The notes under the pieces were generated by a model. That model was not told where the DNA came from and did no database searches. It saw only the letters and a program-made list of their open reading frames with translations. From a virus (taxonomy: Duplodnaviria > Heunggongvirae > Uroviricota > Caudoviricetes), in the IMG/VR virus record IMGVR_UViG_2526164690_000054: a stretch of DNA of 24,401 bases. One strand, 5' to 3'. The position numbers were made by a program, and so were the translations under genes. This document shows positions 4,362 to 18,736 of the stretch, one piece after another (the first letter of the stretch is position 1; every line of letters begins with the position of its first letter).

Positions 4362-5011
4362 GCCGCCATCTCCCTGACCAGTTTTTCCGCCTGCTGGCGA
4401 ACCTGCGCCAGAAAGGCCTCACCACATGCCTCAAGTTCATCGCGCCCGATGTAGCTGATTGCCGGTCCCTTCCAGGTCTTGTCGAAAACAGCAATAGCAC
4501 CAGCGAAGAAAGCGCCTGTCGGCACCTGCTTCTCGTCTTTCGGGATAAACCAGGCAGGCAGTTCAAAACCAATACGCCCTCGAATAAAAGCAATATGGTC
4601 CGCATCTTCCGGCCACCACACTTCGCTGGTGGCAGCTTTGATCAGGAAAACATAGCGCCCGCCTTTATCACGCATGGCACTGGCATGTTTCATGATGTAA
4701 CGCATGCCGGTGATGTATTGCCCCTCATGCTGACTGGCGCGGCTGTATGGGGGATTACCAAAGGCAGCCCCTTTAAGCTCCGCAAGACGTTCTGACCAGT
4801 CATGCGCCAGCGCGTTGTCTTCCGCCGTGTAATACGCAGCACATTTGGCGTTATCACCGTCAGTAAACAGATCCAGAACAAACGGGCCAAACAGGGTGTT
4901 CATTCCCCAGAAAATGTTGTCCGGCGTGCGCCACTGATCGCCCACTTCCTTCAGTTCATGGGCTGGTTTGTTCCGCAGTTCCACCAGCTCCTGGCAATAT
5001 TTATTACTCAT
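4358..5011 (-). CDS. phage-type DNA N6-adenine methyltransferase (Dam family)
   Basis: Contains the NPPY catalytic motif (FGNPPYS). The ATG at 5011 overlaps the PerC-like stop codon (TAATG coupling); the longest frame starts at GTG 5044. Confidence 0.8.
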   Translation of the reverse strand: MSNKYCQELVELRNKPAHELKEVGDQWRTPDNIFWGMNTLFGPFVLDLFTDGDNAKCAAYYTAEDNALAHDWSERLAELKGAAFGNPPYSRASQHEGQYITGMRYIMKHASAMRDKGGRYVFLIKAATSEVWWPEDADHIAFIRGRIGFELPAWFIPKDEKQVPTGAFFAGAIAVFDKTWKGPAISYIGRDELEACGEAFLAQVRQQAEKLVREMAA

Positions 5012-6542: not shown

Positions 6543-7702
6543 TTGCGCCCCCTTACCTCTGAAGAGTTCAGCGACGAATGAATAAGACGGGCAAGAAATG
6601 CCGCATCGTTAATTCGGTCATACAGACTTACAGCCAGCGATGATTCAGCTTTTTCCAGCATGGGATAAAGCTGCTGCAACCAGACCTGATGAATTGATGA
6701 AACGTAGGAATAGAGAACGCTGGCGTTATGTGCAACGTCGCTCGGTACAGAGGGCTTTGAAAGCTGTTTCTCCATCTGGTTAAAGGCATTGATGTATGCC
6801 TCTTTGAACTGGGCAGCACGTTTGCCAGTGAAGCCCATTGCCAGGAACGCGAAGCCGTCGCGGGTGATGTGGTAGCAAGGAAGTTTGCGAGTACCGCCGT
6901 TGGGCTGGTGTACCAAAATTGATGTCTCCGCAAAATTGCGGGCACAAAACTCTGGAGAACAATCCAAAATGCGGATCTTTTTCAGAACATCGTCATGACG
7001 TTTAGAGAAGAAGTCAGCAACAGCCAAAGAAGATGTAACAGCCTGACCATCAACGATGGCAATTTCAGGTTGAGAGAGGGTTGGGAGAGTAGTCATGGTG
7101 ACAGCCCCGGTAGTCAGTTTTTCAGAAAACTCACCACATGGGACGCCAATCACAGAGGTGGTGAGACGTACAGGGTTGGCGTTACCGGAGACTACCGAAC
7201 CCGGCCCGACCGAAGTCGGCCCTGTACGCCCCACCATAATTTGGGCGTAGCAATGCTCATGACACGAAAAAACCGCATGAGCGCGGTTATGCTCAGTAAT
7301 CAATTTCAGGACGCCAATCCCGGCACCCGCTTTATAAGGTGCCTGAACAGTGTAACGTCCCGGAATGGCAGAATCAATGTGCTGGTGGTCCTTCACACTC
7401 AACAAAATCACGCCTGAATTTCCACAAAGGACTAAAGCACTCATGCGGGTAGTCTTTGCGAAGATAGATAACACGCTGTGTTTCTGGCTCCCAACGAATA
7501 ACATGGACATAAAGCCCTCTTCCGTCACGAAACCAGCGGTTAAGTTCCTGCACAACTCGCCCCCCACAGTCAGGTAAAGTTCTCTGTGGTTACTTACAGC
7601 CAGGTGATTTGGTAATCTGCATTCATGCCGTAACAACAGGTGTTCAGCGACACTGACCACCAGCTGTTGCGACAAACGGTTATTTGCCGTTAAACTGTTC
7701 AT
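6539..7702 (-). CDS. Rha-domain phage regulatory protein with ~200-aa N-terminal extension
   Basis: Residues ~200-300 (VTSSLAVADFFSKRHDDVLKKIRIL...ITRDGFAFLAMGFTGKRAAQFKEAYINAFNQMEKQ) match the Rha domain pattern. Start 7702 is coupled (ATGA) to the CII-like stop; an alternative internal start at 7096 would give a Rha-only protein. Confidence 0.55.
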   Translation of the reverse strand: MNSLTANNRLSQQLVVSVAEHLLLRHECRLPNHLAVSNHRELYLTVGGELCRNLTAGFVTEEGFMSMLFVGSQKHSVLSIFAKTTRMSALVLCGNSGVILLSVKDHQHIDSAIPGRYTVQAPYKAGAGIGVLKLITEHNRAHAVFSCHEHCYAQIMVGRTGPTSVGPGSVVSGNANPVRLTTSVIGVPCGEFSEKLTTGAVTMTTLPTLSQPEIAIVDGQAVTSSLAVADFFSKRHDDVLKKIRILDCSPEFCARNFAETSILVHQPNGGTRKLPCYHITRDGFAFLAMGFTGKRAAQFKEAYINAFNQMEKQLSKPSVPSDVAHNASVLYSYVSSIHQVWLQQLYPMLEKAESSLAVSLYDRINDAAFLARLIHSSLNSSEVRGRK

Positions 7703-8262
7703 GCGTTAGTTTCTCCACAGACACAAAACGCCACGACGCCCGGAGCTGCACACTCGCGGGCGTCACTCTTTTCTGGAGCGCAAAAGATTTTGTAGACCAG
7801 TGCTGCATGCTCCTGGAGCTTCGAAATTGACAGATACAACTCATCATTAATTGCTGTCTGCTCGTGTGGCTCCACGACCCCATCTTCGATTGCCGAACGA
7901 ATCTGCTTTGAGTAATTCCCGATCTGTTCGATGACTTCCAGCAGGCGCTGGTTTATATCGGCGTTCTCTACTTCCTCAATTTCAGGAAGCGATACGAACA
8001 CCCCACCAGCAGACTGTGCGACAGCATCCGCAATGTAGTGAGTGCCAGCCGCGCGCTGTAAAACCATTGCCCATCCCAGCGGGAAAATCTGATCGCCATC
8101 GGCACGAAGGCGGTTAAATAATGCGTTCTCTGTTACATCCAGCCAGTCAGCTGCTTCAGCGTAACCACCCGGCAACGCTGCGATAGTTTTTCTGACAGCT
8201 TTCACGTACCACTCAGGCTGTTTTTCTACTTTCCAGTGATACTTACCCACGGTTAGCCTCAT
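7699..8262 (-). CDS. phage regulatory CII-like protein (CP76/YdaT-type)
   Basis: 187 aa, second gene after the Cro-like gene; architecture and motifs resemble the phage regulatory CII family as recalled; inference only. Confidence 0.5.
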   Translation of the reverse strand: MRLTVGKYHWKVEKQPEWYVKAVRKTIAALPGGYAEAADWLDVTENALFNRLRADGDQIFPLGWAMVLQRAAGTHYIADAVAQSAGGVFVSLPEIEEVENADINQRLLEVIEQIGNYSKQIRSAIEDGVVEPHEQTAINDELYLSISKLQEHAALVYKIFCAPEKSDARECAAPGVVAFCVCGETNA

Positions 8263-8293
8263 CGTTCTGTGGTTAAAAATTGAAGGTGTTCTG

Positions 8294-8494
8294 TTAATCT
8301 TTCGGATAGATATCCGGTCTTAAGTCAGATTTCGTAATTGCACCTGACGTGCATTGCTCAAGTTTTTTAGCCAGCACAAAACTGGCTTTTTTATAACCAT
8401 TGAAAACCAGCCGTAAGTAGCCTGGTGTTGAGCCAACTTTTCCGGCCAACTCGCCCTGCTGTTCTTTGGTTAAAGAGTCCCAATACGCTTTCAT
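8294..8494 (-). CDS. Cro-like HTH transcriptional regulator (YdaS/Cro family)
   Basis: Small HTH protein divergent from CI. The start at ATG 8494 is preceded by GGAGG (8505-8509 on plus); the track frame extends to 8518. Confidence 0.65.
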   Translation of the reverse strand: MKAYWDSLTKEQQGELAGKVGSTPGYLRLVFNGYKKASFVLAKKLEQCTSGAITKSDLRPDIYPKD

Positions 8495-8584
8495 ACAATA
8501 TGTACCTCCAATATACATATTACATGATTAATATGAACCTTCAAGATACTTGTACCTTATCGGTACAAAGGTTTTAATTTCTTT
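8495..8584. promoter_or_regulatory. divergent immunity-region promoter/operator
   Basis: 90-bp gap between divergent cro-like and cI genes containing the palindrome TTGTACC-ttatc-GGTACAA (8550-8568) and an extra TGTACC half-site at 8501-8506. Confidence 0.5.
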
Positions 8585-9259
8585 ATGAAAACAGTCCATG
8601 ACATCCGGCGGTCTAACGCCAGAAAACTGAGAGATGGTGTTGGCGGGAATTCTTCCTTTGCCACCATGATTGATCGCGAGCCAACCCAGACCAGCAGGTT
8701 TATGGGAGATGGTGCTACTAAAAATATCGGTGACAGCATGGCACGGCACATCGAAAAATGTTTCGACCTGCCTGTCGGATGGCTTGATCAAGAACACCAG
8801 ACCACGAACATCACAAAAAAACCTGATGTTTCAATCACTAACAAACAAATAACGTTAGTCCCTGTCATATCATGGGTACAGGCCGGAGCATGGAAAGAAG
8901 TTGGCTATTCTGAGGTTGATTTGAGCACAGCAGAAACTTATCCCTGCCCTGTACCCTGTGGCGAAATGACTTATATCTTGCGGGTGATTGGTGATTCAAT
9001 GATTGATGAGTACCGCCCGGGAGACATGATTTTTGTTGATCCCGAAGTCCCTGCCTGCCACGGTGACGACGTTATTGCATTGATGCACGATACAGGCGAA
9101 ACCACCTTCAAGCGATTGATAGAAGATGGAACACAGCGTTATCTCAAAGCATTAAACCCAAACTGGCCTGAGCCTTACATTAAGATTAACGGTAATTGCT
9201 CTATAATTGGTACAGTAATTTTCTCAGGAAAACCAAGAAGATACAAAATAAAGGCCTAA
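8585..9259 (+). CDS. CI-like prophage repressor (HTH plus S24 LexA-like peptidase domain)
   Basis: C-terminal half (VISWVQAGAW...VIGDSMIDEYRPGDMIFVDPE...TFKRLIEDGTQRYLKALNPNWP...IIGTVI) is collinear with the lambda CI cleavage domain, including the Ser (GDSM) region and a Lys. Confidence 0.85.
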   Translation: MKTVHDIRRSNARKLRDGVGGNSSFATMIDREPTQTSRFMGDGATKNIGDSMARHIEKCFDLPVGWLDQEHQTTNITKKPDVSITNKQITLVPVISWVQAGAWKEVGYSEVDLSTAETYPCPVPCGEMTYILRVIGDSMIDEYRPGDMIFVDPEVPACHGDDVIALMHDTGETTFKRLIEDGTQRYLKALNPNWPEPYIKINGNCSIIGTVIFSGKPRRYKIKA

Positions 9260-9270
9260 TCAATATTTAT

Positions 9271-9294
9271 AACCTGCTTCGGCAGGTTTTTTTA
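9271..9294 (+). terminator. rho-independent terminator after cI
   Basis: aacctgc-ttcg-gcaggtt hairpin (7-bp stem, 4-nt loop) followed by a 7-T run. Confidence 0.6.
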
Positions 9295-9297
9295 TAC

Positions 9298-9325
9298 TTG
9301 ACAATGTACCCTTGAGATACATAAT
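9298..9325 (+). promoter_or_regulatory. sigma70-like promoter (PL analogue)
   Basis: TTGACA (9298-9303), 16-bp spacer, CATAAT (9320-9325); directly after the cI terminator and facing the early-left operon. Confidence 0.4.
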
Positions 9326-9742
9326 GTATCTAAAAGAAACATGCCGCAGGCAAGATTAAACAAAATTTGGTTGTAACACGGCGTATGGCACATGCGTCGT
9401 TAGCGGTCTGGGGACGTTAAAGGGGACAATCCACTCCTTGCTCGGGCAAAAAAACCAGGTAGCCGGAATGTGCAAGTCAATGATGATGCTGATAAGACGC
9501 CTAACCAGCGCGGCGATCCGGTTTGACGCCTGGGAAGAGACCAGGGTGCAACGATGAGGGCATTTATGGAACCGCGACAAAGTGTGGTGCCGTAACTTGC
9601 TAAGTGCTCTCAGCGTTGTGGTAATCCGCGAAATGGCGCGGCGGTAAGTATGGCGGGGTTACTCTTTCCCCGTTGAGGACACCGGATTGTCAGGTTGACC
9701 ATACGCCTGAGTGACAACCCCACCACAACAGCCACTGCTTTG

Positions 9743-9875
9743 GCGGTACCAGTTTGTACACTTGCTTCCGGCTGGTACCGCTCTTTTTACAAAACAGAGA
9801 AGAGCATCACCGGACGACGGGCTCATAACCCAATCCAGCCGGGCGGCTGCCACCGCAGGTGTTCTTCTCTGTTTT
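9743..9875 (+). promoter_or_regulatory. structured leader element (terminator-like hairpin plus long inverted repeat)
   Basis: 10-bp inverted repeat gcggtaccag/ctggtaccgc (9743-9752 / 9772-9781) followed by CTCTTTTTAC; then a 14-bp inverted repeat aaaacagagaagag (9791-9804) / ttcttctctgtttt (9862-9875) enclosing a GC-rich 57-nt loop; no convincing ORF across 9330-9925. Confidence 0.3.
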
Positions 9876-9925
9876 GTGGAGAAACCAACCGACCTTGCAG
9901 GGTCGATATGATGAGGAGCAGCAAA

Positions 9926-10288
9926 ATGGCTAGCGAACGCAGTACTGATGTGCAGGCATTTATCGGGGAGCTGGACGGCGGCGTATTTGAAACCAAAATC
10001 GGCGCAGTTCTCAGTGAAGTCGCTTCCGGTGTGATGAACACGAAAACCAAAGGTAAGGTCTCGCTCAACCTGGAAATCGAACCGTTTGATGAGAACCGTG
10101 TGAAAATCAAACACAAACTCTCATATGTTCGCCCGACTAACCGCGGGAAAATTTCCGAAGAAGACACCACCGAAACGCCGATGTATGTCAATCGCGGTGG
10201 TCGACTGACTATTCTGCAGGAAGACCAGGGACAATTACTGACTCTTGCCGGTGAACCTGACGGAAAACTCCGCGCAGCAGGTCATTAA
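9926..10288 (+). CDS. hypothetical prophage protein (first gene of early-left operon)
   Basis: ATG 9926 preceded by GAGGAG (9913-9918); 120 aa; the longer track frame from 9695 has no RBS and runs through the structured leader. Confidence 0.55.
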   Translation: MASERSTDVQAFIGELDGGVFETKIGAVLSEVASGVMNTKTKGKVSLNLEIEPFDENRVKIKHKLSYVRPTNRGKISEEDTTETPMYVNRGGRLTILQEDQGQLLTLAGEPDGKLRAAGH

Positions 10289-10353
10289 TATCGTTCTTAA
10301 TTAACTGATTATTTATCTCATCACTGAATATCTTTATATAGTGAGGACTTATT

Positions 10354-11178
10354 ATGTCTCAGAACTTAGACGCAACCGCAATTAATCAAATCCATGCCCT
10401 TATTTCTGCTCAGGGTGTTAATGAAATTATCAGTAATATTGGTGCCGATGCTGTGGCATTGCCTGAGAATTTCCGCATTCATGATCTGGAAAAATTTAAT
10501 TTAAATCGCTTCCGTTTCCGTGGTGCGCTTTCCACTGCCAGCATCGATGACTTTACCCGTTATTCTAAAGATCTTGCAGATGAAGGCACCCGCTGCTTTA
10601 TCGATGCCGATAATATGCGAGCCGTCAGTGTGCTTAACCTGGGTACTATTGATGAACCAGGTCACGCAGATAACACCGCCACCCTCAAACTGAAAAAGAC
10701 AGCACCGTTTTCTGCTCTGTTGTCTGTTAATGGCGAGCGTAACTCCCAGAAGTCACTGGCAGAATGGATTGAAGACTGGGCCGACTACCTTGTGGGCTTT
10801 GATGCTAATGGTGACACCATTCAGGCAACCAAAGCGGCTGCGGCAGTCCGTAAAATCACAATTGAAGCAAACCAGACCGCTGATTTTGAAGACAATGACT
10901 TCAGCGGCAAACGCTCCCTGATGGAGTCTGTCGAAGCGAAGACCAAAGACATTATGCCAGTGGCATTTGAATTTAAATGCGTTCCGTTTGAAGGCCTGAA
11001 AGAACGTCCGTTTAAATTACGCCTCAGCATTATCACTGGCGATCGTCCTGTACTGGTTCTGCGCATTATTCAGCTGGAAGCGATGCAGGAAGAAATGGCT
11101 AACGAATTTCGTGATCTGCTTGTTGAGAAATTCAAAGACAGCAAAGTAGAAACCTTTATTGGTACTTTCACCGCCTGA
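10354..11178 (+). CDS. DUF2303-like prophage protein (YfdQ-like)
   Basis: 274 aa; size, position and sequence are reminiscent of the CPS-53 prophage YfdQ family; recollection only. Confidence 0.65.
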
Positions 11179-17407: not shown

Positions 17408-18736
17408 CTGATGAATCCCCTAATGATTTTGGTAAAAATCATTAAGTTAAGGTGGATACACATCTTGTCATATGATCAAATGGTTTCGCGAAAAATCAAT
17501 AATCAGACAACAAGATGTGCGAACTCGATATTTTACACGACTCTCTTTACCAATTCTGCCCCGAATTACACTTAAAACGACTCAACAGCTTAACGTTGGC
17601 TTGCCACGCATTACTTGACTGTAAAACTCTCACTCTTACCGAACTTGGCCGTAACCTGCCAACCAAAGCGAGAACAAAACATAACATCAAACGAATCGAC
17701 CGATTGTTAGGTAATCGTCACCTCCACAAAGAGCGACTCGCTGTATACCGTTGGCATGCTAGCTTTATCTGTTCGGGCAATACGATGCCCATTGTACTTG
17801 TTGACTGGTCTGATATTCGTGAGCAAAAACGACTTATGGTATTGCGAGCTTCAGTCGCACTACACGGTCGTTCTGTTACTCTTTATGAGAAAGCGTTCCC
17901 GCTTTCAGAGCAATGTTCAAAGAAAGCTCATGACCAATTTCTAGCCGACCTTGCGAGCATTCTACCGAGTAACACCACACCGCTCATTGTCAGTGATGCT
18001 GGCTTTAAAGTGCCATGGTATAAATCCGTTGAGAAGCTGGGTTGGTACTGGTTAAGTCGAGTAAGAGGAAAAGTACAATATGCAGACCTAGGAGCGGAAA
18101 ACTGGAAACCTATCAGCAACTTACATGATATGTCATCTAGTCACTCAAAGACTTTAGGCTATAAGAGGCTGACTAAAAGCAATCCAATCTCATGCCAAAT
18201 TCTATTGTATAAATCTCGCTCTAAAGGCCGAAAAAATCAGCGCTCGACACGGACTCATTGTCACCACCCGTCACCTAAAATCTACTCAGCGTCGGCAAAG
18301 GAGCCATGGGTTCTAGCAACTAACTTACCTGTTGAAATTCGAACACCCAAACAACTTGTTAATATCTATTCGAAGCGAATGCAGATTGAAGAAACCTTCC
18401 GAGACTTGAAAAGTCCTGCCTACGGACTAGGCCTACGCCATAGCCGAACGAGCAGCTCAGAGCGTTTTGATATCATGCTGCTAATCGCCCTGATGCTTCA
18501 ACTAACATGTTGGCTTGCGGGCGTTCATGCTCAGAAACAAGGTTGGGACAAGCACTTCCAGGCTAACACAGTCAGAAATCGAAACGTACTCTCAACAGTT
18601 CGCTTAGGCATGGAAGTTTTGCGGCATTCTGGCTACACAATAACAAGGGAAGACTTACTCGTGGCTGCAACCCTACTAGCTCAAAATTTATTCACACATG
18701 GTTACGCTTTGGGGAAATTATGAGGGGATCTCTCAG
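17408..18736 (+). mobile_element. IS10 insertion sequence (complete, 1329 bp)
   Basis: Outside end CTGATGAATCCCCTAATGATTTTGGTAAAAATCATTAAG at 17408; inside end ...GGGGATCTCTCAG ending at 18736; encodes the 402-aa IS10 transposase; flanked by a 9-bp duplication. Confidence 0.9.
17515..18723 (+). CDS. IS10 transposase (IS4 family)
   Basis: 402-aa ORF within the IS10 ends; sequence recognised as the IS10/Tn10 transposase. Confidence 0.9.
   Translation: MCELDILHDSLYQFCPELHLKRLNSLTLACHALLDCKTLTLTELGRNLPTKARTKHNIKRIDRLLGNRHLHKERLAVYRWHASFICSGNTMPIVLVDWSDIREQKRLMVLRASVALHGRSVTLYEKAFPLSEQCSKKAHDQFLADLASILPSNTTPLIVSDAGFKVPWYKSVEKLGWYWLSRVRGKVQYADLGAENWKPISNLHDMSSSHSKTLGYKRLTKSNPISCQILLYKSRSKGRKNQRSTRTHCHHPSPKIYSASAKEPWVLATNLPVEIRTPKQLVNIYSKRMQIEETFRDLKSPAYGLGLRHSRTSSSERFDIMLLIALMLQLTCWLAGVHAQKQGWDKHFQANTVRNRNVLSTVRLGMEVLRHSGYTITREDLLVAATLLAQNLFTHGYALGKL

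Follow-up and report, generated by a model that had tools for sequence, protein, structure and literature searches.

Small RNAs (sRNAs) of the 3' external-transcribed-spacer (3'ETS) kind, such as 3'ETS-leuZ, lie between a transfer RNA (tRNA) and the terminator of its operon, and their 5' ends are made by ribonuclease (RNase) E. The tRNA-like RNAs that are processed by RNase P include the C4 RNA of phages P1 and P7 and MALAT1-mascRNA. ROOL and GOLLD are large, intricately folded RNAs of phages and prophages, often located next to tRNAs or interleaved with them. Work on DicF goes back to about 1990, and few genomes are annotated as well as those of P1 and Escherichia coli K-12. We analysed 24,401 nucleotides (nt) of DNA from a Caudoviricetes virus (IMG/VR record IMGVR_UViG_2526164690_000054), a stretch that is called the window here, and in it the leader at 9326-9925, between a PL-like promoter and the gene yfdP. 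An initial annotation, made from the sequence alone, had suggested that this leader might encode an RNA-based antitermination element or an sRNA. In the case of DicF, the 5' end is made by RNase E, intrinsic termination accounts for the 3' end of the 53-nt form and an RNase III cut for that of the 72-nt form, and the regions that pair with xylR, ftsZ and pykA have been described (PMC5069750). In the case of RNA-based antitermination, the put RNA has about 70 nt and consists of two adjacent stem-loops (PMC9378689).

The leader was a chain of exchangeable conserved RNA modules in the order A, A3, B, T and C, in which a tRNA-like element (module B) stood before an intrinsic terminator at the position of DicF. 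The best explanation of 9326-9925 was the untranslated head of a repressor-controlled PL transcript in a lambdoid prophage of the SfV/e14 type. Phage genome searches split the region into pieces that had separate distributions and sharp module boundaries. The piece at 9365-9621 (module A plus A3) was found at 77-82% identity in P1/P7 and in the epsilon15-like Uetakevirus phages. The P1/P7 copy lay directly after tRNA-Ile and before ban, and the Uetakevirus copies (TL-2011b, O157 typing phage 9 and SPN1S) lay directly before tRNA-Arg. The piece at 9615-9737 (module B) recurred in many lambdoid prophages and opened the ban leader of P1, where the GenBank record notes a "dicF-like region" that the module B copy overlapped. 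The piece at 9741-9930, which comprised the terminator, module C and the yfdP ribosome-binding site, recurred in SfV, SfIV, ST64B and others.

A grammar of these modules was laid out from the sequence downstream of module A at 106 distinct loci, representing about 56 context types. The common plan consisted of the module A core, an A3 hairpin, a cassette closed by GUUGUGG...CCACAAC, a DicF-like terminator and an A3-type hairpin, often with a small hairpin between the cassette and the terminator. The modules were joined at short common motifs such as GUUGUGG. An integron attC-like reading of GTTGTGG...CCACAAC was rejected because the core-site consensus and the orientation did not fit. SfV had neither module A nor module B and retained a similar early-left operon, in which the same terminator and module C were preceded by a remnant of A3 and by a tRNA-like cassette of another kind. 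Since SfV keeps a cassette, the terminator and the long hairpin without A and B, the constant unit consisted of these three, the cassette being a tRNA or tRNA-like. In the Uetakevirus phages, the array formed a small separate unit among structural genes of opposite orientation. In the Qin prophage of K-12, an A3-type hairpin and module B stood before dicF, and another such cassette stood after it. In addition, a contig of Candidatus Erwinia dacicola (L245) and four further loci (L151, L152, L181 and L200) contained stretches of several hundred nt without open reading frames (ORFs), filled with repeated GGAAGAG-loop hairpins, A3-type hairpins and nested cassettes. The RNA array can apparently grow into a large composite RNA.

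The leader was conserved, highly structured and non-coding. The initial annotation had described about 600 nt without a convincing ORF behind the cI terminator and a promoter, and these features were found in place. On the plus strand of 9326-9925, there was no ATG ORF of at least 20 amino acids (aa), the three frames contained 5, 7 and 12 stops, and no internal ORF had a Shine-Dalgarno sequence. A protein-coding reading was rejected on the absence of ATG ORFs and Shine-Dalgarno sequences and on the stops in all frames. An in-frame TTG extension of yfdP, starting at 9695, was also rejected; it crossed the terminator and the hairpins and gave no Pfam match. The high degree of structure claimed for the leader was borne out by the minimum free energy z-score of −3.9 on the plus strand, where none of 100 shuffles folded as well. 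An RNA from the minus strand was rejected, because it was less stable (z = −3.1 versus −3.9) and many G-U pairs would turn into A-C mismatches. G-U pairs were frequent on the plus strand only, for example 41 UG and 48 GU in the closing stem of module B, which fits an RNA made from the plus strand. Rfam 15 was searched at gathering and permissive thresholds with the window and 17 related loci. No match was obtained for modules A, B and C in this set, and all of the matches, to tRNA, DicF (K-12), C4, isrK and RNA-OUT, lay elsewhere. ARAGORN found no tRNA and no transfer-messenger RNA in the window.

Module B (9615-9729, plus strand) was identified as a tRNA-like element by homology to the segment before dicF, covariation and slot equivalence, and it was probably tRNA-derived. 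Its closing stem paired 9615-9622 with 9722-9729 (GUUGUGGy with rCCACAAC). Inside this stem were hairpin P2 (9626-9641), helix P3 (9642-9645 with 9681-9684), which enclosed a variable hairpin (9654-9672), and hairpin P4 (9685-9719). A pseudoknot joined GUAUGG at 9648-9653 to CCAUAC at 9699-9704. Approximately 100 distinct copies were collected by pattern scans of IMG/VR and metagenomes. The 36 pairs of the model were 95.9% paired, compared to 31-56% with the partner columns slid, and compensatory changes occurred at 9 pairs compared to 3.3 in shuffles. The closing stem, P2, P4 and the pseudoknot were 96-99% paired with compensatory changes. In the case of the pseudoknot, the triplets were UAU/AUA in 92 sequences, CAU/AUG in 7 and UAU/AUG in 2, and an extra metagenome scan for pseudoknot variants added little diversity.

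The slot occupied by module B contained a real tRNA-Arg in 28 of 127 loci (73 bits), with the +1 G of the tRNA at the fourth base of GUUGUGG. In the Uetakevirus phages, tRNA-Arg started at the GUGG of the common ...CGUU/GUGG junction, exactly where module B starts. Other slot contents were cassettes with only a T arm, several tRNA-like classes and module B itself. In the tRNA-like classes, a stem resembled the acceptor, one hairpin took the D position, and another, which was stacked on the 3' strand, took the T position. The loops of the two hairpins were complementary (GCUGAU/AUCAGC), and in one locus (L189) both had changed jointly to GCUAAU/AUUAGC. One slot (L235) held a 77-nt cassette with cloverleaf proportions and a T-arm, which was assigned by its proportions without a tRNA detector. 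Another (L200, 1077-1203, minus strand) held a tRNA whose anticodon arm was replaced by a 64-nt insert; the acceptor stem UGUGGUU/AACCACA, the D arm and the T arm were kept, and the Rfam tRNA score was 43.9 bits. This gene may be a tRNA with an intron, or it may represent a transitional form on the way to the tRNA-like cassettes. In K-12 Qin (L007, 2449-2590), a second tRNA-like cassette, UUUUGUGAUGUGG-UGAAUGCGGCUGAGCGC...CACCUGGAGGCACCAGGCACUGCAUCACAAAA, lay unannotated between dicF and dicB. In the record of Actinobacillus phage vB_Apl-pPE4 (L008, 2988-3119), a 5'-truncated module B with 85% identity lay between a DicA-like repressor on its upstream side and the genes for kil and exodeoxyribonuclease VIII (recE-like) on its downstream side. 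This is a Rac-like early region of the E. coli type in an unexpected host record (Actinobacillus pleuropneumoniae).

Downstream of module B, a single-stranded linker (9730-9741) led to an intrinsic terminator at 9742-9788 on the plus strand, which is the candidate for a DicF-family sRNA. The hairpin at 9742-9781, GGCGGTACCAG...CTGGTACCGC, had a free energy of −21.2 kcal/mol and was followed by TCTTTTT at 9782-9788. The initial annotation had listed a 10-bp hairpin followed by CTCTTTTTAC, and both the hairpin and the U-tract were present. A simple terminator scan skipped this hairpin because of its loop of more than 8 nt. When 9615-9737 of the window was compared to 1649251-1649373 of K-12 Qin, the identity was 89.4% over 123 nt, and the alignment ended 9 nt before dicF. 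The terminator and dicF had only a common scaffold, UUUGGCGGUAyCAGUUU and CCGCyCUUUUUA. A hairpin with a U-run was found within 130 nt of module B in 85 of 88 unique contexts. Since these hairpins came in 48 sequences, the terminator form was conserved and the DicF sequence was not. The Rfam DicF model (RF00039, threshold 48) gave 76.7 bits for K-12 dicF as the positive control. By position and scaffold, the sequence points to the window hairpin as a diverged relative of DicF and not a member of the family model. The sRNA that had been offered as the second alternative was thus well placed, since the hairpin and U-run stood at the DicF position. As read from the K-12 sequence, the closing stem of the following cassette contains the position at which RNase III sets the end of the 72-nt DicF.

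Module A was the best-conserved piece of the leader. Its core (9378-9545, plus strand) was a conserved pseudoknotted RNA fold that the covariation in 113 unique copies supports. The helices began with hairpin Ha (9379-9399) and H2 (9406-9410 with 9456-9460), and a variable insert followed. An invariant stretch of 18 nt, GUAGCCGGAAUGUGCAAG, was located at 9459-9476. Hairpin H5 (9497-9511) had a 7-nt YUMACCA loop, and a pseudoknot paired 9503-9506 with 9520-9523. The last hairpin (9529-9545) had a GGAAGAG loop. The 18-nt core GUAGCCGGAAUGUGCAAG was used as the search pattern, and it gave 113 distinct copies in 40-45 clusters. The five helices, with 28 pairs, were 95.5% paired, compared to 29-48% with the partner column slid, and compensatory changes were found at 12 pairs. 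Covarying pairs were 9383:9395 (GC 74, AU 34), 9409:9457 (CG 57, UA 53), 9498:9510 (CG 79, GC 27) and the pseudoknot pair 9503:9523 (CG 86, AU 24).

The module A core gave 27 matches in species-representative genomes, nearly all in Enterobacteriaceae genera and one in Azonexus. In that one case (L258, Azonexus hydrophilus, Betaproteobacteria, 4648-4665), the exact 18-nt core was present outside Enterobacterales. A few contigs of metagenome-assembled genomes labelled Bacteroides, Oscillospiraceae and Bacillota also matched, and these are probably mis-binned enterobacterial phage DNA. Module A was found in P1, P7 and the Uetakevirus phages as well as in lambdoid prophages. The variant in the window was present in 1262 of 5426 complete E. 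coli genomes (23%, megablast). There was no annotated feature under module A in 12 of 12 genomes among the matches listed. Some copies lay directly 3' of a promoter; in one locus (L219), the order was a terminator, TTGACA-18-TACATT and module A, which parallels the order in the window.

The long hairpins of the A3 type were the third conserved element. A3 itself (9549-9618, plus strand) was recognised by its recurrence in about 56 distinct phage contexts, where this hairpin grammar stood upstream of tRNAs and tRNA-like cassettes. Its outer pairing joined CAACG at 9549-9553 to CGUUG at 9614-9618, and its inner pairing joined GAGGGCA at 9556-9562 to UGCUCUC at 9605-9611. The interior was variable, and the hairpin ended in the junction motif GUUGUGG. 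The general form was ...CAAC-nn-GAGAGCAyU...AGUGCUCUC-nn-CGUUGUGG, and at least 10 sequence variants of the inner stem stayed compatible with pairing. Module C (9789-9879, plus strand, −47 kcal/mol) was a second hairpin of the same class. Its stem of 21-23 bp (9789-9811 with 9858-9879) enclosed a branched interior of about 46-49 nt, which was a three-way junction including a conserved GGGCUCAUAACCC hairpin, and its 3' end was GUUUUGUGG. Module C was conserved across 24 sequence variants, among them SfV, in which changes in the stem compensated each other. The initial annotation had reported a 14-bp inverted repeat at this site. The repeat was real, and its length was revised: it is an 18-nt repeat at 94% identity and part of the stem of 21-23 bp. 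The covariation in these alignments supports module A, module B and the A3/C class alike.

The anatomy, the conservation and covariation, the equivalence to tRNAs in slot and the constant association of tRNA-like cassettes with terminators were observed; for the transcripts, the processing enzymes, the leakiness of the terminator and a trans-acting role, we infer the following course. The leader might be a processed non-coding RNA array, in which a tRNA-like element is followed by a leaky terminator that yields a 3'-trailer sRNA of the DicF family. We give this reading an even chance. Upon loss of the repressor, PL would fire, and many polymerases would halt at the terminator, so that the precursor would have a length of about 450 nt. 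The precursor might then be cut by tRNA-processing enzymes, with RNase P acting 5' of the tRNA-like element and RNase E in the linker on its 3' side. This would be the simplest account, in that it calls on known enzymes and treats the head of the PL transcript as a tRNA precursor. This would release a U-tailed sRNA, probably Hfq-binding, that would be the equivalent of a 3'ETS sRNA. Its seed differs from that of DicF, and different host mRNAs would be expected as targets. The polymerases that read through would produce the yfdP-yfdQ-...-int mRNA, and the terminator would thereby attenuate the early-left genes. The A3 and C hairpins are likely RNase III sites that would separate the units and set the 5' end of the yfdP mRNA.

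Several points weighed against this reading. Module B was recognised neither by the tRNA covariance model nor by ARAGORN, and no tRNA or other Rfam match was obtained for it at E ≤ 10 in 9200-10000. Its central arm was a variable hairpin with a 9-nt loop and not an anticodon arm, and it had no 3' NCCA, the sequence 3' of the closing stem being AACAGCCA. The term "tRNA-like" denotes a putative relationship drawn from slot equivalence, intermediates and overall architecture, and the closing stem, hairpins and pseudoknot would by themselves indicate only an architectural likeness to tRNA. The closing stems extended 3 bp past the +1 of tRNA, which is not the canonical geometry of an RNase P substrate. 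The covariation of module B was good but not overwhelming, as the sequences were not very diverse (88% mean identity) and had been collected with patterns in which two conserved stretches were fixed. In the case of DicF, the family model gave no match in 9200-10000 even at E ≤ 10, and the regions of DicF that pair with its targets (the 5' end with xylR, the loop and 3' region with ftsZ and pykA) were not conserved in the window. A trans-acting role of the window sRNA would be an extrapolation. If the terminator were efficient, the distal genes, including the integrase gene, would still need read-through. In addition, the model assigns no role to module A.

Other explanations were weighed against the same observations. 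In processive RNA antitermination, nascent module A and/or B would bind RNA polymerase, as HK022 put does, and replace N. We consider this unlikely, and every defining feature of RNA-based antitermination that was examined came out against it. The initial annotation was right that there was no N-like gene: the leader had no ATG ORF of at least 20 aa, and the first downstream protein, YfdP (9926-10288), had no Pfam match and no Arg-rich N-terminus. This absence favours antitermination, as does a strong-looking terminator between PL and genes that need to be expressed, with the integrase at the operon end. Intricate conserved folds just after promoters in the window, at P1 Pban and in L219 point the same way, as does module B just before the first terminator in 85 of 88 contexts, and Rho could otherwise act on a long RNA that is not translated. 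The nut-type form of control was rejected, since there was no boxB and no N gene and the boxA-like string proved to be the terminator tail. The string CGCUCUUUUUACAA at 9779-9792 resembled boxA, whose consensus is UGCUCUUUAACAA, and coincided with the 3' arm and U-tail of the terminator; CTCTTTTTAC, which had been called boxA-like, was the U-tail itself. There was no exact consensus match at 9779-9792, the K-12 and P1 versions did not have the string, and no boxB-type hairpin followed it in the leader. The boxA consensus GCTCTT[TA]A occurred after module A in 3 of 106 related contexts. The leader thus resembled lambda N/nut in its position just downstream of PL, and differed from it in having neither a boxB nor an N gene. 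Compared to HK022 put, a cis-acting antiterminator whose read-through depends on the zinc-binding domain of the RNA polymerase beta' subunit, the likeness was a structured nascent RNA that lies ahead of terminators and near the beginning of early transcription in an N-less lambdoid phage. The differences lay in sequence similarity, size and fold, in a single copy in one operon and in modules that could be exchanged or absent. A blastn-short search against HK022 24000-31000 gave no similarity to putL or putR, only chance 10-14-mers outside put. The put architecture was rejected, since module A had about 170 nt with five helices and a pseudoknot and module B was a 115-nt multi-helix junction, in place of a pair of adjacent stem-loops in about 70 nt. 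Nothing in the leader had a second copy elsewhere in the 24.4-kb window, and the rightward early operon therefore contained none. Module B could be replaced by a real tRNA or by unrelated cassettes, SfV kept its early-left operon without A and B, and the Uetakevirus array stood as a unit of its own among oppositely oriented genes. Termination at the DicF terminator does occur in K-12 (PMC5069750). A riboswitch-like attenuator, in which module B as an aptamer would decide whether the adjacent terminator forms, is the least probable of the explanations. The layout is consistent with it, since an intrinsic terminator directly follows a multi-helix junction that has a pseudoknot. The heptamer GGCGGUA occurred at 9640-9646 in module B and at 9742-9748 in the 5' arm of the terminator, both on the plus strand, so that the 3' arm of the terminator could in principle pair with either, and it was conserved in most variants of both sites; however, the P1 version did not have the repeat. 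No Rfam riboswitch match was found in the window. The linker (12-50 nt) and the terminator sequence varied without a conserved alternative helix, the slot could hold a tRNA or unrelated cassettes, and there was no conserved metabolic gene downstream. GGCGGTA also equals the first seven bases of the RfaH ops element; an ops-like reading at 9640 and 9742 was set aside because position 8 and the 3' half of the ops consensus were unmatched.

The tRNA-like cassettes, and perhaps module A, might instead act in trans as free decoys or scaffolds, with a terminator that merely ends the gene. Host tRNA-binding enzymes, tRNA-targeting defence nucleases and RNA polymerase could be the partners. This explanation, which we judge improbable to the same degree as antitermination, is compatible with the processing model and places the function elsewhere. 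It was favoured by the slot that the cassettes share with real phage tRNAs, by the existence of intermediates and by the loop-loop "elbow" pairing, which was kept and covaried in L189. The promoters directly upstream of some module A copies are consistent with it, as is the spread of module A, which was found in 23% of E. coli genomes and in phages of the P1-like, epsilon15-like and lambdoid groups. ROOL and GOLLD moreover belong to a known unexplained class of large RNAs that phages encode beside tRNAs. On the other side, no conserved partner protein was encoded nearby, the anticodon arm, which is the usual target of tRNA nucleases, was the part that had been replaced, and the high exchangeability of the cassettes fits a structural or processing role equally. 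The leader might also be evolutionary debris, consisting of decayed phage tRNA genes and recombination linkers with only the promoter and the terminator functional. The extreme mosaicism with junctions at GUUGUGG, the absence of A and B from SfV and the truncated module B of the Actinobacillus phage record would fit this. However, at least 20 base pairs of A and B, and also pairs in A3/C, are maintained by compensatory changes, and pure decay is contradicted because it would erase such signals. The invariant 18-nt core of module A across Enterobacteriaceae genera and the fold z-score of −3.9 compared to shuffles also stand against debris, and we regard it as very improbable, nearly as much as the riboswitch. 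A further proposal is that module A, alone or with the cassette, is a new class of functional phage RNA, either an element that modifies RNA polymerase or a free RNA like ROOL and GOLLD. This is a tentative proposal that we would not expect to hold, although we rank it above antitermination and the free decoys. If it were true, DicF, which was among the earliest small RNAs to be described, would correspond to the 3' trailer of a phage tRNA gene that has decayed. In its polymerase-modifying form, N-less temperate phages would transcribe through their own terminators in this way, and in its free-RNA form, the RNA would manipulate a host pathway linked to tRNA or RNA processing.

The region of the leader was 100% identical to a prophage of E. 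coli O26:H11 strain 11368 and to many other O26 and O103 strains. The same 671 bases were present at 98-99% identity in phages cdtI, Ayreon and 2H10 and in Stx2c phages, whose records annotate short hypothetical ORFs or nothing in the region. RefSeq places the LexA-family repressor gene ymfK at 8585-9259 (Peptidase_S24) with a divergent cro-like ymfT, and then nothing until yfdP at 9926-10288. Downstream of yfdP are yfdQ (DUF2303), yfdR and further genes, and the operon ends with the integrase gene. The intrinsic terminator of ymfK, the cI-like repressor gene, was located at 9271-9296 (plus strand; hairpin 9271-9288 and a T-run in the terminator scan) and is also annotated in phages Ayreon and SfV. 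It was followed at 9298-9325 (plus strand) by the PL-like sigma-70 promoter TTGACA-16-CATAAT, which had 11 of 12 consensus matches and was the best site in 8200-10500. Its predicted transcription start was near 9332, and it is annotated as a promoter in phage Ayreon. A pattern search gave two adjacent operator-like 19-mers, ATGTACC-N6-ATACAT, within 9304-9342 (9304-9322 and 9324-9342). The 19-mer at 9304-9322 overlapped the promoter and had an exact second copy at 8500-8518 in the cI/cro intergenic region. Related copies were found at 8533-8551 and 8550-8568 in the same intergenic region and at 9324-9342 on the PL side. The pattern had 15 matches at ≤3 mismatches, a number that no shuffle reached. 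The five 19-mers, three between cI and cro and two at the PL-like promoter, form a candidate operator set of this immunity type. As the 19-mer of the promoter recurs exactly between cI and cro, the promoter looks repressor-controlled. At the other end of the leader (9890-9928, plus strand), the sequence, the fold and the RefSeq coding sequence (CDS) start placed a small hairpin at 9890-9905, the Shine-Dalgarno sequence GAGGAG at 9913-9918 and the start codon of yfdP at 9926-9928.

Other RNA genes were observed elsewhere in the window. On the minus strand at 7154-7342, Rfam matched the C4 antisense RNA (7154-7241, 82 bits) and isrK (7266-7342, 59 bits), both inside the RefSeq "Rha family phage regulatory protein" ORF at 6551-7702. 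This suggests a c4-icd-ant immunity module of the P1/P7 type embedded in the lambdoid early-right operon, and the annotated start of the Rha-family CDS may run through two RNA genes. RNA-OUT (17453-17522, minus strand, 98.8 bits) adjoined a 402-aa ORF (17515-18723); together they are an insertion sequence of the IS10 type downstream of the integrase region of the prophage.

Some parts of this picture are of already known kinds, namely a DicF-type locus, tRNA-like structures and tRNA-trailer sRNAs. What appears to be new is the tie between the DicF family and a tRNA or tRNA-like cassette, the status of modules A and B and the A3/C hairpin class as conserved structured RNAs without an Rfam family, and a modular grammar common to lambdoid, P1-like and epsilon15-like phages. 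Literature searches on DicF, yfdP, antitermination and ROOL/GOLLD gave no description of these modules among the matches listed, with the 1994 dicF work and the O157 catalogue of Hfq-bound sRNAs outside the comparison, and neither a search on dicF together with RNase P or tRNA-like RNA nor the DicF-centred papers that were covered made a link between the two. Conserved folded RNAs beside dicF and in the P1 ban leader carry no Rfam family, although both genomes are well annotated. The results would give DicF an origin as the trailer of a phage tRNA or tRNA-like gene, and they define a family of cassettes that derive from tRNAs and retain the "elbow" contact. They also show that about one in four complete E. 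coli genomes contains module A, a pseudoknotted RNA with a length of about 170 nt, and they provide a grammar of modules by which N-less temperate phages build the untranslated heads of their early operons.

The comparison with known systems was as follows. In the case of ROOL and GOLLD, the likeness was in phage-encoded, intricately folded RNAs that adjoin tRNAs. However, neither the window nor the related loci matched their family models, the hosts were Enterobacteriaceae, and the RNA was a chain of exchangeable modules. In the case of the 3'ETS sRNAs, the likeness, which is an analogy, was an sRNA between a tRNA or tRNA-like structure and an intrinsic terminator, and in the Uetakevirus phages the DicF-like terminator directly follows tRNA-Arg as in the 3'ETS arrangement. 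As in the RNase P-processed RNAs, a tRNA-like fold would act as the signal for processing. The window differed from 3'ETS sRNAs, C4 and mascRNA, because its tRNA would be replaced by a non-chargeable derivative that tRNA models miss, and because the unit forms part of the leader of a phage operon that encodes proteins, where processing would be expected by analogy. The dicBF locus of Qin had the same logic as the window: a repressor gene of the cI/DicA type, a repressed promoter, an untranslated RNA ending in an intrinsic terminator and small early-left genes downstream. The two loci differed in that Qin has ydfABC before the RNA region and no module A core, whereas the window has module A and no small ORFs.

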